DNA of 64,000 nucleotides from a virus (IMGVR_UViG_3300028833_000053), one strand, 5' to 3'; numbered from the stretch's first letter, positions 5,394 through 20,037 are shown. Program-made: numbers and translations. Notes: generated by a model not told the origin, from the sequence alone.

Positions 5394-5440
5394 AAACCCC
5401 CTTTACTTTGGAAACCGGATGTGATATACTGTGTGTGTTC
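5394..5440 (+). promoter_or_regulatory. Sigma70-type promoter P1 of the tRNA operon
   Basis: AAACCCC-TTTACT-17 nt-TATACT with TG extension. Confidence 0.7.
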
Positions 5441-5531
5441 TCTGCGAGAGGAAGGCTGATGAAACGAAGCCACCTCTGGCAGGTGAACGCGAGAGCCTGA
5501 GAAGCTGGGTAGAACCAGTGAGAAAGGCATC

Positions 5532-5561
5532 GTTCTTTGACAATTGAATGTTTTGACGTTT
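5532..5561 (+). promoter_or_regulatory. boxA-like antitermination element plus leader motif
   Basis: GTTCTTTGACAATTGAATGTTTTGACGTTT, compared with rrn boxA TGCTCTTTAACA. Confidence 0.6.
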
Positions 5562-5679
5562 GGTTGTTCCCCCGCAAGGGGGAATGAACCAAAGCGATAA
5601 AGGAAAGACTAGGCTTTGTTGTGCGAGTCTCCCCTTTGGCGGCGAACGTCCAGAGGTCTAAAGCAAACATCCTTGCTAT

Positions 5680-5754
5680 CACGGTGTAGCAAAATGGTCT
5701 TGCAACGGACTTTTAATCCGTGAGATGCGGGTTCGAGTCCCGTCACCGTGACCA
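5680..5754 (+). tRNA. tRNA-Lys(TTT)
   Basis: Cloverleaf, CACGGTG/CACCGTG, loop CT-TTT-AA, CCA. Confidence 0.9.
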
Positions 5755-5795
5755 AATCAAGTGAAACGCCTAAAAACTTTTTTCAGAATTTTCCG

Positions 5796-5842
5796 AAACC
5801 CCCTTGCTTTTGGGGAACGGATATGGTATACTGTGTGTGTTG
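5796..5842 (+). promoter_or_regulatory. Sigma70-type promoter P2
   Basis: AAACCCCC-TTGCTT-17 nt-TATACT. Confidence 0.7.
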
Positions 5843-5878
5843 ACGCGAAACAAGGTTTCCACGCGAAACAAGGTTTCC
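5843..5878 (+). repeat. Perfect 18-bp tandem duplication in the P2 leader
   Basis: ACGCGAAACAAGGTTTCC x2. Confidence 0.9.
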
Positions 5879-5925
5879 ATCAACGCCGCTCTTTGAAGGT
5901 TGCGCGAGCAACCGGCAAGAACAAA

Positions 5926-5944
5926 GCTCTTTGACAACTGAATG
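5926..5944 (+). promoter_or_regulatory. boxA-like element 2
   Basis: GCTCTTTGACAACTGAATG. Confidence 0.6.
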
Positions 5945-6116
5945 ATTCAATGTAGGAAAGACTGTTCCGCTTGGCGGAACATTCATCACGCAAGTCACCC
6001 CTTGGAGGAAACTCATAAGAGAACCTTGGGTCTAGCGCGGATGGTTCTACGATTTCAAACGATTCTTAAATTGGGCCGAAGCATCGGGCCCAAGCCAACG
6101 CGAGGCGATCAGTCCT

Positions 6117-6178
6117 TATCCACTGGCGTGGTTGCATACGAATGTGTGCAATGCGGGTTCGACTCCTGCGGTGGGATA
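6117..6178 (+). ncRNA. D-armless tRNA-like mini-RNA
   Basis: Acceptor-like stem, one hairpin, T-arm GCGGG-TTCGACT-CCTGC. Confidence 0.5.
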
Positions 6179-6197
6179 GATGCTCCAATTTCAAGAT

Positions 6198-6273
6198 TGC
6201 GGGACGGTGCATCGGTTGCATATCGGGTTCATACCCCGAAGATGGTTGGGTTCGACTCCCACTCCCGCTACCA
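6198..6273 (+). tRNA. Initiator tRNA-Met(CAT)
   Basis: 1:72 mismatch, GGG/CCC anticodon stem, CCA. Confidence 0.85.
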
Positions 6274-6787
6274 ATTTGGAATGACGACGTGAAGTTCTCT
6301 GGCAAGAGACGCGAACATACTGGACCGATAGTTCCCCAGAACGGGTCAAAGTTCATGATACTGAAGGTATGGGCGTTCCAATTCCATTTGAATCAAAGGT
6401 AAGGCGAATTTGCTCTGTGGTGTAAGCAAACACACCTCCTGACAATAGGAGGAATTGGCCTGCGATTGGTCTGGAGCAACCGTGGTATGAAAAATCCACA
6501 CCTCATATTAAAGGACAAAACGTCATTTGGAGTAATTGACCAGTTGGCGCCGAGAATATGATAGATTGCCTTTGAGAACGACCTTTCAAGGTCGTAAAGA
6601 ACGACCTTTTCAATTTGCGCAAAAGCCCAGACGTGGGCAAGGTTGTACGGTGAAGTACGTTATACCTGCGTTATAAAGGACATGAGCATCCGGACGATGC
6701 CGCCCCGAGAGTAAAATGGGGAAAGACCAGGGGTTCAACTCCCACATGTCCCAGCGAAATTTCAAATTGGTTGCGTTGCGCAACCTT

Positions 6788-6867
6788 GACGCGAATGGAA
6801 GCTGAAGAAGGTTTGAAATCGTAAGTTCAAATAGCGTTCAGCCCTTGGTCCGATTCCAAGGCGCGTC
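6788..6867 (+). ncRNA. D-armless tRNA-like mini-RNA
   Basis: GACGCG/CGCGTC stem, GCTGAA/TTCAGC helix, T-arm CTTGG-TCCGATT-CCAAG. Confidence 0.5.
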
Positions 6868-6881
6868 TTTACAATTTAGAT

Positions 6882-6969
6882 TCGGCAATACCCGAGTTGG
6901 TAGCAGGGGAGGGACTGTTAATCCCTTGGCGAAAGCCCGTCGCTGGTTCGAGTCCAGCTTGCCGAGCCA
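6882..6969 (+). tRNA. tRNA-Asn(GTT) with a long variable arm
   Basis: Loop CT-GTT-AA, V-arm GGC-GAAA-GCC, G73, CCA. Confidence 0.85.
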
Positions 6970-6976
6970 TTTCAAT

Positions 6977-7052
6977 GCTCCAGTAGCTCAATCGGCAGAG
7001 CATGGGACTCTTAATCCCGGGGTTGTGGGTCCGATTCCCACCTGGAGTACCA
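6977..7052 (+). tRNA. tRNA-Lys(CTT)
   Basis: Cloverleaf, CCA. Confidence 0.9.
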
Positions 7053-7057
7053 ATTTC

Positions 7058-18078: not shown

Positions 18079-18088
18079 ATTTTTCAAT

Positions 18089-18181
18089 GGGAGCGTAGCG
18101 GCCCCGTCTTATGAGCGGGAGATACCGTAGTGGTTCTTGAGATAACTTCAATCGTGGGTTCAAATCCTACCGCTCCTACCA
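18089..18181 (+). tRNA. Atypical tRNA-Ile(TAT): no D-arm, expanded variable region
   Basis: GGGAGCG/CGCTCCT, arm CCCGT-CTTATGA-GCGGG, T-arm, ACCA. Confidence 0.55.
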
Positions 18182-18189
18182 ATTTCAAT

Positions 18190-18270
18190 GGGTCCGTGGC
18201 TCGAGTGTGATAAAGGCAACCGGTTTGCATCCGGTACAAATAGTGGGTTTAACTCCCATCGGATCCACCA
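18190..18270 (+). tRNA. tRNA-Ala(TGC)
   Basis: G3-U70, CCA. Confidence 0.8.
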
Positions 18271-18370
18271 ATTTTAGAACCTGTAGCTCAGAAACTTAGA
18301 GCAAGGGAAACGGCCGGCTTAGTTGTCCCGCGCGAAGGTTAAAGCCCTTCCAGGTTCTGCATTTCAAAAA

Positions 18371-18461
18371 GCCACAGTCGCATAGCCTGGTCGATTGCAC
18401 TGGTTTTGTAAACCAGTATCCGATAAGGGTCGCGTCCGTTCAAATCGGACCTGTGGCTCCA
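18371..18461 (+). tRNA. tRNA-Thr(TGT) with a long variable arm
   Basis: Loop TT-TGT-AA, 17-nt V region, CCA. Confidence 0.85.
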
Positions 18462-18467
18462 GTTTTT

Positions 18468-18558
18468 GCTGAGGTCGTATAGTCTGGTCGATTACAATGG
18501 CTTCGTAAGCCATTATGCTTCTGGCATCACGTCAGTTCAAATCTGACCCTCAGCTCCA
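18468..18558 (+). tRNA. tRNA-Thr(CGT) with a long variable arm
   Basis: Loop TT-CGT-AA, V-arm ATGC-TTCTG-GCAT, CCA. Confidence 0.85.
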
Positions 18559-18562
18559 TTTG

Positions 18563-18645
18563 GCTAGGGTGGCTGAGAGACCGAAAGCGCGTCCATGGTA
18601 AGGACGTATTCCACATCGTCAGTTTGAATCTGACCCCTAGCTCCA
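18563..18645 (+). tRNA. tRNA-Thr(GGT)
   Basis: Loop AT-GGT-AA, 11-nt V region, CCA. Confidence 0.85.
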
Positions 18646-18654
18646 ATTTGAATT

Positions 18655-18684
18655 AGACCATAGGTGACAGCCTATGGTCTTTTC
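18655..18684 (+). terminator. Intrinsic terminator after the last tRNA
   Basis: AGACCATAGG/CCTATGGTCT followed by a T-run. Confidence 0.7.
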
Positions 18685-18762
18685 ATTAAATTTATGTATA
18701 ATTTATAGTAAATACTTTTATGGAGTCACTGTCATGACTTCAACAACAAAAAGGTAAAAACA

Positions 18763-19545
18763 ATGAAATGTGAAAAATGCGGTAACGAACATGATGGTTC
18801 TTATGGAACAGGTAGATTTTGTTCAGAAAGTTGCAAACAAGCATATGTTGCTGGTAAAGTAAAACATAGAAAAAGTGGATTTGCAATAAATAATCCAAAC
18901 CCAAAAGCAAAGTATGGAACGTGGAAATGCCGACTTTGCGGAATCATTTTCAATACACGGGCAACCTTAAAACAACATATGAATTTGGAACATCCATATG
19001 ACAAATCTCATGCGTGGAATTATGGAAAGACAAAAGAATCAGATAAACGTCTAAAAATCGCATCGGAAAAACTTTCAATAAACATGAAACGTTATTTGGC
19101 TTCGGGAAAAGTACGCAAACACATATGGAATGATTCTGAACGTAAAGCCCAATCTGAACGAGCAAAGAAAAACAAAATTGGAGGCTATCATAAACATGGT
19201 GGACGTGGAAAAAGAGGATGGTATAAAGGATATTGGTGCGATAGTTCATGGGAACTTGCTTATGTCATATACAATCTTGAACACGATATACATTTTGTCA
19301 GAAACAGAGTTGGATTTGAATATGAATATGGAGGAATGATTCGGAAATACTATCCCGATTATATTCTTGATGATGGAACTTATGTCGAAGTAAAAGGATA
19401 TGAAGACGAAAAGGTTAAAGTAAAACACAAAACATTTATTTCATCTGGACACATATTAAATGTCATAGGAAAAGAGGAGATAAAACCATACCTTCAATAC
19501 GTCATCGAGAAATATGGAAAGGACTTTACAAGGCTATATGAATGA
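18763..19545 (+). CDS. Putative homing endonuclease, paralog of 11735-12508
   Basis: CEKCGNEHDGSYGTGRFCSESC, C2H2 finger, DSSWE..YYPDY..YVEVKG. Confidence 0.75.
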   Translation: MKCEKCGNEHDGSYGTGRFCSESCKQAYVAGKVKHRKSGFAINNPNPKAKYGTWKCRLCGIIFNTRATLKQHMNLEHPYDKSHAWNYGKTKESDKRLKIASEKLSINMKRYLASGKVRKHIWNDSERKAQSERAKKNKIGGYHKHGGRGKRGWYKGYWCDSSWELAYVIYNLEHDIHFVRNRVGFEYEYGGMIRKYYPDYILDDGTYVEVKGYEDEKVKVKHKTFISSGHILNVIGKEEIKPYLQYVIEKYGKDFTRLYE

Positions 19546-19558
19546 TGTATAATATCAT

Positions 19559-19780
19559 ATGACAAACAAAGAATTAATAGCCAAACTTTCTGAATTTCCC
19601 GAAGATTCCGAAGTTGATTTCTGTCTGTTTTCAAACTTGACACCAAGGCGTTGTGACGTTAAGGATAACCACGTCATGATTAGGCGGTCGCCTCATACGG
19701 GATTGCTCTACATCATGCTTGACCTTGAACCCTATTGGGAAGAGGACATCAAGCGTTCCTTGGCAAGGAATTTTAATTAG
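19559..19780 (+). CDS. Small hypothetical protein
   Basis: MTNKELIAKLSEFPEDSEV, a common phage N-terminal motif. Confidence 0.7.
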   Translation: MTNKELIAKLSEFPEDSEVDFCLFSNLTPRRCDVKDNHVMIRRSPHTGLLYIMLDLEPYWEEDIKRSLARNFN

Positions 19781-19986
19781 CTTCCCAATGCGCGTTCGGA
19801 CGTCTAGCCACGTTTCTGCAGAATCTGTGGCGGCTCCGTCCAACTGCCTTTGGGGTGTGTCCACGCAGGTTAGCGGGTTGGCGTGGACTTCATACGGTCA
19901 GCACAGACTCCCAAATCCAACAAACCCAACATAGATGAGTGTGCGTTCTATGCTTGGCTGGATCCAAAAACCCGCGACCATTTATC

Positions 19987-20004
19987 AAACGTCAAAACAT
20001 TCAA
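19987..20004 (+). promoter_or_regulatory. Trailer motif, exact reverse complement of leader 5544-5561
   Basis: AAACGTCAAAACATTCAA. Confidence 0.75.
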
Positions 20005-20007
20005 GCG

Positions 20008-20037
20008 AAACGGCGCCGGAAAACCGGCGCCGTTTTT
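20008..20037 (+). terminator. Strong intrinsic terminator
   Basis: AAACGGCGCCGG-AAAA-CCGGCGCCGTTT plus TT. Confidence 0.85.

Follow-up and report, generated by a model that had tools for sequence, protein, structure and literature searches.

The tRNA region of a large virus, recorded in IMG/VR as IMGVR_UViG_3300028833_000053, carries ribosomal RNA (rRNA)-type boxA signals behind its promoters, and two of these signals continue directly into a leader strand that is complementary to a trailer strand at the far end of the same 14.6-kb unit. The stretch analyzed, hereafter the window, comprises 64,000 nucleotides of the minus strand of the 433,895-bp record (positions 265,268-329,267), which has direct terminal repeats; the unit spans positions 5,394 to 20,037 of the window and holds 34 of the 36 tRNA genes that ARAGORN identifies in the genome. 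Bacterial rRNA (rrn) operons have boxB-boxA-boxC leaders, an antitermination complex (NusA, NusB, NusE, NusG, SuhB, and S4) and pre-16S and pre-23S leader-trailer helices that are cut by RNase III. We consider it likely that the tRNA region imitates the layout of such a pre-rRNA operon, with boxA loading the host complex, the boxA-adjacent strand closing with the trailer, and the resulting precursor being processed or protected. The observations behind this reading are the sequences themselves, their uniqueness and placement, the register they share with rrn stalks and their covariation across phage lineages.

boxA Leaders and a Long-Range Helix Around the tRNA Array

The boxA-like 12-mer GYTCYTTGACAA, that is G(T/C)TC(T/C)TTGACAA, is found as an exact match at positions 5532, 5926, and 15034, always on the plus strand and each time behind one of the three promoters (at 5402, 5804, and 14960; Table 1) to which a first-pass annotation of the window had assigned it. 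With one mismatch or fewer the 12-mer has nine matches in the window (1.9 expected), and the extended motif YTCYTTGACAAYTGA at the same tolerance has only three sites in the 433,895-bp genome, these same three, all sense to transcription, meaning that every genome copy of the extended boxA is confined to the tRNA region. A fourth promoter, at 12481, is followed by a boxA-like element and was overlooked in the first pass; this leader is homologous to a full boxA leader of a close relative, G002. Another boxA-like sequence, GTTCCTTGGCAA at 19755, lies inside a 73-residue open reading frame (ORF) and was taken as a chance match. In the window, in the two closest relatives (G001 and G002) and in a 291-kb phage with the same plan (G003), the distance from a near-consensus sigma70-type promoter to boxA is 11-103 nt. 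Hairpins resembling boxB are clear before boxA-2 and boxA-3, with weaker structure before boxA-1, and analogous hairpins with other stems precede boxA in G001, G002, and G003; the role of boxB in rrn itself is unclear (PMC10250234).

Two of the boxA copies continue with a shared sequence, as the first pass had noted at 5544-5561 and 15047-15063. We found the 17-mer TGAATGTTTTGACGTTT to be exact at 5545-5561 and 15047-15063 on the plus strand and at 19987-20003 on the minus strand, with no other copies in the genome. The reverse complement that had been placed at 19987-20004 is present, and it stops 2-3 nt upstream of the 13-bp hairpin of the strongest terminator of the region. Pairing of the first leader (L1) does extend further, as had been claimed, and includes one G-U: 19 Watson-Crick pairs, one G-U and one A-U make a helix of 21 bp with a duplex energy of -28.7 kcal/mol. 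The helix of leader L3 is 17 bp (-23.3 kcal/mol). The loops that these helices would close measure 14.4 kb from promoter P1 and 4.9 kb from P3, and enclose from 7 to 34 tRNA genes.

L1 and L3 are identical at 17 of 17 positions precisely over the segment that pairs, while there are two differences between their boxA cores and no relation between their flanks; identity so limited speaks for selection to keep the pairing and against simple duplication. Helices were detected by ungapped helix scoring and by searching for exact inverted repeats; RNAduplex comparisons of 70-nt leaders with 80-nt windows failed to distinguish the true trailers from long interrupted duplexes. Exact inverted repeats of at least 16 nt number 191 in the 434-kb genome, many of them repeated promoter elements. 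The length of the helix by itself proves nothing, and its non-chance feature is its placement, adjoining boxA twice and the terminator once. Within 20 kb of a TGAAT-anchored leader, chance alone would supply about 5e-6 reverse complements of 16 nt or longer (20,000/4^16). The possibility that the trailer is itself a leader on the minus strand was rejected: no boxA or promoter lies upstream of it on that strand and the neighboring genes are all on the plus strand.

Covariation in Other Phage tRNA Arrays

Relatives were sought by pattern scans of viral contigs, a second of which added four arrays (L363, L361, L293, and L328). A megablast search of the 14.6-kb region against a phage collection gave no match, and scans for the exact 17-mer in viral contigs and for a 20-mer leader pattern in metagenome contigs gave chance matches in unrelated DNA and no closer helix-bearing relative. 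Two markers from the end of the unit were tried as well. The 260-residue ORF at 18763-19545 was rejected as a marker of synteny, being probably mobile, with relatives spread over 54 unrelated viral contigs, loci without a clean trailer. The search with the 73-residue ORF returned one AT-rich phage, which has neither boxA nor the helix.

G003 resembles the window only in its tRNAs, yet it has the same plan written in a different sequence. It has two promoter-hairpin-boxA leaders, both continuing with AATTGAATGTAGATGA, and the exact reverse complement of this 16-mer lies 3 nt past the last of 35 clustered tRNAs; the 16-mer has just three copies in 291 kb, the two leaders and the one trailer. In L363, a promoter and boxA are followed by 14 enclosed tRNAs and, 6 nt past the last of these, by a trailer forming a 19-bp helix. 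The helices of L361, L293, and L328 are 16 bp, 17 bp (with one G-U) and 15-16 bp, respectively. Five phage arrays beyond the window therefore have boxA, stalk strand, and matching trailer, with a different sequence after TGAAT in each. The leader/trailer pair is the longest inverted repeat of its locus in G003, L361, and L363, and in the latter two the only one of at least 14 nt. When the six phage lineages were aligned on TGAAT, 60 of 62 cells in columns 5-15 were paired, and each of these 11 columns has at least two types of Watson-Crick pair. The cases were chosen for their complementarity, and the nearest relatives, G001 and G002, have no helix; judged from its sequence, each chosen helix is nevertheless far beyond chance for an anchored match.

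These alignments also bear on the idea that the 17-21-nt repeats work at the level of DNA, as the operator of some protein or as sites of recombination or inversion. A DNA-binding protein or an invertase could well use a site present three times and in both orientations. Between lineages, however, it is the complementarity that is conserved and not the sequence, the orientation is the same in all arrays, with no sign of inversion, and every copy occupies a transcribed, sense position beside boxA or at a transcript end. Furthermore, G-U pairs, which would be mismatches in DNA, are present in L1 of the window, in L293 and L328, and in two bacterial rrn stalks (L093 and L101, below), which fits pairing in RNA rather than DNA. 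We therefore regard a DNA-level function as very improbable.

Many viral contigs without tRNAs (L256, L260, L264, L271, L273, L278, L286, L288, L290, L304, L305, L309, L316, L321, and others) have boxA fused to a strand that pairs 170-750 nt downstream over 16-37 bp. From their sequences these loci look like small cassettes of boxA and a closing helix around short RNAs or small genes.

The Same boxA and Stalk Register in Bacterial rrn Operons

The 17-nt boxA string TCYTTGACAAYTGAATG was scanned for in one genome per prokaryotic species, yielding at least 120 loci. Fifteen of about 120 listed matches are in recognizable rrn context, including four 16S leaders of Acidobacteriota, the others being in 16S-23S spacers or pre-23S positions (Bryobacterales, Planctomycetota, Magnetococcales, and others). 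In five of the 13 rrn loci tested, a strand starting within boxA or immediately 3′ of it, (GACAA)YTGAAT..., can pair with one that ends in ...ATTCA a short way beyond the rRNA, giving stalks of 30 bp (L138) and 46 bp (L159) around 16S and of 24 bp (L093), 24 bp (L101), and 19 bp (L196) around 23S. As read from these five loci, boxA in real operons runs straight into the 5′ strand of the processing stalk, and the register is that of the phage. The 23S stalk of a Bryobacterales operon, TGAATGTTGACGGGCAA, and that of L101, CAATTGAATGTTTCTGG, resemble the phage strand CAATTGAATGTTTTGACG. Comparison with rrn leaders, which the first pass had proposed, was informative, revealing the same boxA 17-mer in real rrn leaders and spacers and the same stalk register. 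The 17-mer is present in rrn operons from several phyla and so does not by itself single out one host group.

The likeness extends to the signals and not to the cargo. Rfam searches of the region at both gathering and E-value thresholds returned tRNAs only, with no other RNA family and no rRNA family, and a search for small-subunit rRNA found none in the whole genome. Since the leader/trailer helix encloses tRNAs and not rRNA, the region imitates an rrn operon without belonging to the class.

Two further loci contain the 17-mer. In L125, a 60.6-kb contig of a Bryobacteraceae metagenome-assembled genome, the boxA 17-mer lies inside a block of 19 tRNAs spanning 2.6 kb (4234-6836); L125 is probably of phage or prophage origin and may hint at a host. 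In L135, an Acidobacteriota contig, the 17-mer is present in three tandem copies (3916, 4074, and 4232) with a 158-nt period and an identical sequence after each; simple motif checks detected no rRNA near these copies.

Relatives Without a Trailer and the Position of the Trailer

Several observations weigh against the pre-rRNA mimic and are considered here together. Closest to the window are G001 (418 kb, complete) and G002 (a 201-kb fragment), which are syntenic with it across the whole array, with 70-95% identity in patches, and have kept the promoters, hairpins, and boxA. Their post-boxA sequences differ, no trailer is found at the homologous place in either relative, and the complement of the third leader of G001 is found nowhere in the G001 genome at up to three mismatches. 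Candidate trailers at 14642 in G002 and 14711 in G001 were rejected, as they are within coding sequence, are imperfect or G-U-rich, and score in the range of chance maxima. As G001 and G002 have boxA without a trailer, the helix is, on this sequence comparison, an accessory that can be gained or lost and is dispensable for a working array. A clear trailer was seen in about six of about 20 boxA-bearing arrays sampled, many of these loci being truncated. Within the window, two of the four boxA leaders (5926 and 12521) have no trailer partner, and the L3 helix is no longer than 17 bp. Lastly, rrn-type boxA is documented to act against Rho-dependent, not intrinsic, termination (PMC4807359), and resistance to intrinsic terminators is ascribed to the lambda N complex (PMC10250234).

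The architecture proposed in the first pass, an rrn-operon-like combination of boxA and a long-range helix, holds up in the identical boxA and register of real rrn operons and in the five other covarying phage arrays, but not in G001 and G002, where boxA is kept without a complementary trailer. Likewise, the expected covariation of leader and trailer is seen across the six lineages and not in the closest relatives, which keep the motifs and lack the complementarity, an outcome that the first pass had named as refuting, that fits its refuting condition in part and that speaks against an essential role of the helix. It could be argued from this that the boxA leaders are Nus-dependent antitermination or elongation signals and that the complementarity has no function in cis, being a recent neutral copy or a relic. 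The trailerless relatives and the partnerless leaders of the window would be in keeping with such an origin, as would the 1.3 kb and hairpin that part the trailer from the last tRNA and the fact that inverted 16-19-mers are not rare genome-wide. We think it unlikely nonetheless, as a neutral copy accounts poorly for an identity between L1 and L3 that is limited exactly to the pairing segment, for a trailer that adjoins the terminator, and for an anchored design that recurs, its sequence covarying, in five further phage arrays as well as in real rrn operons; the low chance expectation for an anchored complement within 20 kb also speaks against it.

The position of the trailer is the other difficulty. 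It lies 1.3 kb past the last tRNA (ending at 18645), behind the hairpin at 18655, an endonuclease-like gene, and the separately promoted 73-residue ORF, so that pairing in cis requires read-through of the 18655 hairpin, possibly a partial terminator that must be passed. From the layout of the sequence, short transcripts of units promoted downstream of the array would likewise terminate with the trailer at their 3′ end. An alternative is therefore that the trailer acts in trans, with the 3′ end of short transcripts from promoters near 18690 and 19525 annealing to the leaders of separate tRNA transcripts and thereby triggering RNase III cleavage or modulating Nus loading, an antisense-type control and not the closing of a loop. 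The hairpin with its T tract and the independent promoters between array and trailer suit this alternative, as does a single trailer serving two leaders. In G003, L363, and L328, however, the trailer follows the last enclosed tRNA by 3-24 nt and no promoter intervenes, an arrangement for which pairing in cis is the simple reading, and the register equals that of the cis stalks of rrn, leading us to judge action in trans improbable. Because the trailer directly follows the last tRNA in those three arrays, its displacement in the window may be secondary, via gene insertion.

Other Features of the Locus

The features of the unit are collected in Table 1. Between the tRNAs of the array are conserved, RNA-like stretches without ORFs, along with endonuclease genes; the SegB homing endonuclease is located in the T-even tRNA region (PMC13096335). 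The HNH gene is open only with TAG read as an amino acid, and under translation table 11 it is broken, leaving a 106-residue piece. A lone tRNA with a CUA anticodon (labeled Pyl by ARAGORN) was found at G000:C1:410487-410576, about 81 kb from the array, placing the presumed TAG suppressor outside the boxA-led unit. In addition to the two internal hairpins in Table 1, a hairpin with a T tract is present at 6588.

Table 1. Features of the boxA-led tRNA unit, with window coordinates.
Feature	Position	Strand	Details
Promoter P1	5402-5430	+	TTTACT-17-TATACT, TG ahead of the -10, A/T-rich stretch upstream; promoter scan
boxA-1	5532-5543	+	GTTCTTTGACAA; exact motif; string identical to one in real rrn operons
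Leader strand L1	5544-5564	+	TTGAATGTTTTGACGTTTGGT; pairs with 19984-20004, 21 bp including one G-U
tRNA array	5680-18645	+	34 tRNA genes (ARAGORN), every one on the plus strand
Promoter P2	5804-5832	+	TTGCTT-17-TATACT, near-duplicate of P1; read from the sequence
boxB-like hairpin	5898-5913	+	GGTTGC-GCGA-GCAACC; fold; 5′ of boxA-2
boxA-2	5926-5937	+	GCTCTTTGACAA; sequence 3′ of it without trailer partner; leader conserved in G001 and G002
HNH homing-endonuclease gene	8477-9151	+	Within array; phrog_655, E 1e-37; open with TAG as amino acid (table 15)
Endonuclease-like ORF	11621-12508	+	NUMOD3 motif; within array; sequence comparison
Fourth promoter	12481-12509	+	TTTACA-17-TATAAT; boxA-like TCTTTGACAG 11 nt downstream at 12521 (element 12481-12530)
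Internal hairpin, terminator-like	14274-14302	+	Weak T tract; -18.9 kcal/mol; downstream of a 211-residue ORF
Promoter P3	14960-14988	+	TTTACA-17-TATAAT; promoter scan
boxB-like hairpin	15006-15021	+	GGATACC-AA-GGTATCC; fold; between P3 and boxA-3
boxA-3	15034-15045	+	GTTCCTTGACAA; exact motif
Leader strand L3	15047-15063	+	TGAATGTTTTGACGTTT; pairs with 19987-20003, 17 bp
Hairpin after last tRNA	18655-18680	+	Weak T tract TTTTCATTAAA follows; -19.7 kcal/mol; conserved in G001
Endonuclease-like, probably mobile ORF	18763-19545	+	260 residues; C2H2-type finger; PHROG endonuclease families; between last tRNA and trailer
Promoter and 73-residue ORF	19525-19780	+	TTTACA-17-TATAAT; own unit, also running into trailer and terminator
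Trailer strand	19984-20004	+	ATCAAACGTCAAAACATTCAA; complement of L1 (21 bp) and L3 (17 bp)
Intrinsic terminator ending the unit	20007-20046	+	Strong; 13-bp stem, 9 G-C, then TTTTTGTTGTTG, together at 20007-20036; -25.6 kcal/mol

Some additional observations were made in and around the array. The segment at 16050-18000 (plus strand, matching the L076 reverse complement at 11100-12500) covers about 2 kb, lacks a credible ORF, matches G001 at 80-95% identity and has T-arm-like pieces such as GGTCCGAATCCCG. At about 16770, a promoter and boxA (TTTACA-17-TATAAT, TCTTTGAGAATTGG) that G001 has kept have been lost from the window. At 19525-19561 and 20082-20118 (plus strand), TTTACA-17-TATAAT is followed 5 nt later by ATGACAAAC, an arrangement also seen in G001; the start codon would fall at or beside the expected transcription start, giving the small genes at these two places a leaderless look. 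Finally, a 20-nt exact inverted repeat, TTTCGTATAATTGTAAATAG, joins 11669-11688 (plus strand), inside the endonuclease-like ORF, with 38486-38505 (inverted). As GTATAATTGTAAATAG is found again elsewhere in the genome, this repeat resembles a repeated promoter-type element.

Discussion

Published work on rrn operons lends the proposed mechanism support by analogy. For the rrn antitermination complex to assemble, boxA is both required and sufficient, and 30S biogenesis requires a leader-trailer helix longer than 17 bp (PMC10250234). It has been proposed that boxA, bound by NusB, anchors the leader strand at the RNA exit channel for as long as the trailer has not emerged (PMC10250234), while the Nus factors and SuhB make a loop between boxA and RNA polymerase that promotes maturation, and boxA blocks Rho-dependent termination of long noncoding inserts (PMC4807359). 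The mostly untranslated 14.6-kb unit described here is an obvious Rho target, and a helix across 4.9-14.4 kb would be hard to form without a boxA tether, which together lead us to read the region as a pre-rRNA mimic.

In the sequence of events that we envisage, host RNA polymerase would initiate at the sigma70-type promoters and the nascent RNA would soon expose a boxA of the rrn type, frequently preceded by a small hairpin resembling boxB. As it does in rrn operons, boxA may then load host NusB/NusE and the other rRNA antitermination factors, and the complex would shield the long, mostly untranslated transcript from premature (Rho-type) termination. The strand directly 3′ of boxA, which has the place of boxC in Escherichia coli, would serve as the 5′ strand of the helix, with its partner at the far end of the unit. 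If boxA stays at the exit channel, as the published model of a tether has it, the leader strand would be kept beside the emerging trailer, and a helix of 17-21 bp could close the 4.9-kb loop (from P3) or the 14.4-kb loop (from P1). The closed precursor might subsequently be cut by host RNase III and/or have its ends shielded during tRNA excision; the modeled 21-bp helix of L1 is in principle long enough for RNase III. Nus binding, read-through of the internal hairpins, cis pairing, and RNase III cleavage are thus the steps that we infer. Searches with Pfam models detected none of RNase III, NusB, S10 (NusE), and NusG in the phage, hence any function of boxA must use host factors. As for the two leaders, which the first pass had supposed to compete for one trailer, their recurrence in G003 suggests that each promoter has been given the same closing strand rather than that the leaders compete.

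The proposal may also be put more broadly, in a form that we rate as nearly as likely as not. Many unrelated phages, this megaphage among them, might disguise their tRNA arrays as pre-rRNA, with boxA recruiting the host antitermination/chaperone complex and the tethered leader closing loops of 3-14 kb, thereby setting release and maturation, whether by RNase III or by end protection. Such phages may in the process divert Nus factors from host rRNA synthesis, and the nested loops on one trailer in the present phage could close early and later transcripts alike.

The resemblance to bacterial rrn operons is extensive. Both have a promoter and a boxA of identical sequence, before which several phage leaders show a small hairpin, with the 5′ helix strand (YTGAAT...) directly after boxA and the complementary strand after the structural RNAs, and in both boxA is repeated within the unit (compare the 16S-23S spacer). 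The phage helices have 17-21 bp, E. coli requires one exceeding 17 bp (PMC10250234), and our bacterial examples are longer, at 19-46 bp. The phage unit differs in enclosing 7 to 34 tRNA genes and endonuclease genes with no rRNA, in having loops of 4.9 and 14.4 kb as opposed to about 1.8 and 3.2 kb in rrn, in sharing one trailer between two leaders, in having an intrinsic terminator immediately after the trailer, and in belonging to a virus that encodes none of the factors. Lambdoid nut sites are alike in that a phage boxA in the nascent RNA modifies host RNA polymerase (PMC10250234, PMC4807359). In nut sites, however, boxA precedes boxB, N protein is needed and the operons are of mRNA, whereas here, in the order known from rrn, a hairpin is followed by a boxA of rrn form and then by a stalk strand, with tRNAs as cargo.

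The tRNA clusters of T4-type phages are similar in that clustered tRNAs in a large T4-like phage are interrupted by homing-endonuclease genes. To our knowledge, no boxA or leader-trailer helix has been described for these clusters. A search of full-text literature, with most subscription journals outside its coverage, found papers on rrn boxA, on the helix and on jumbo phages, and none linking boxA or a leader-trailer helix with phage tRNA clusters. What appears to be new is the reuse of rrn-type signals around phage tRNA arrays; the rrn-type signals themselves are known. Phage tRNA arrays, usually annotated as lists of tRNA genes, thereby gain an operon grammar of promoter, boxA, stalk strand, cargo, and trailer, from which it is predicted that large phages rely on host rRNA transcription and maturation machinery for their tRNAs. 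The motif pair could be used to define the boundaries of arrays and, possibly, to identify hosts by matching phage stalks with host rrn stalks. Because close relatives differ in having or lacking the helix, comparing them could show what it contributes beyond boxA, and loops of 4.9 and 14.4 kb, far beyond any rRNA loop, put the model of a boxA tether at the exit channel to a natural test.

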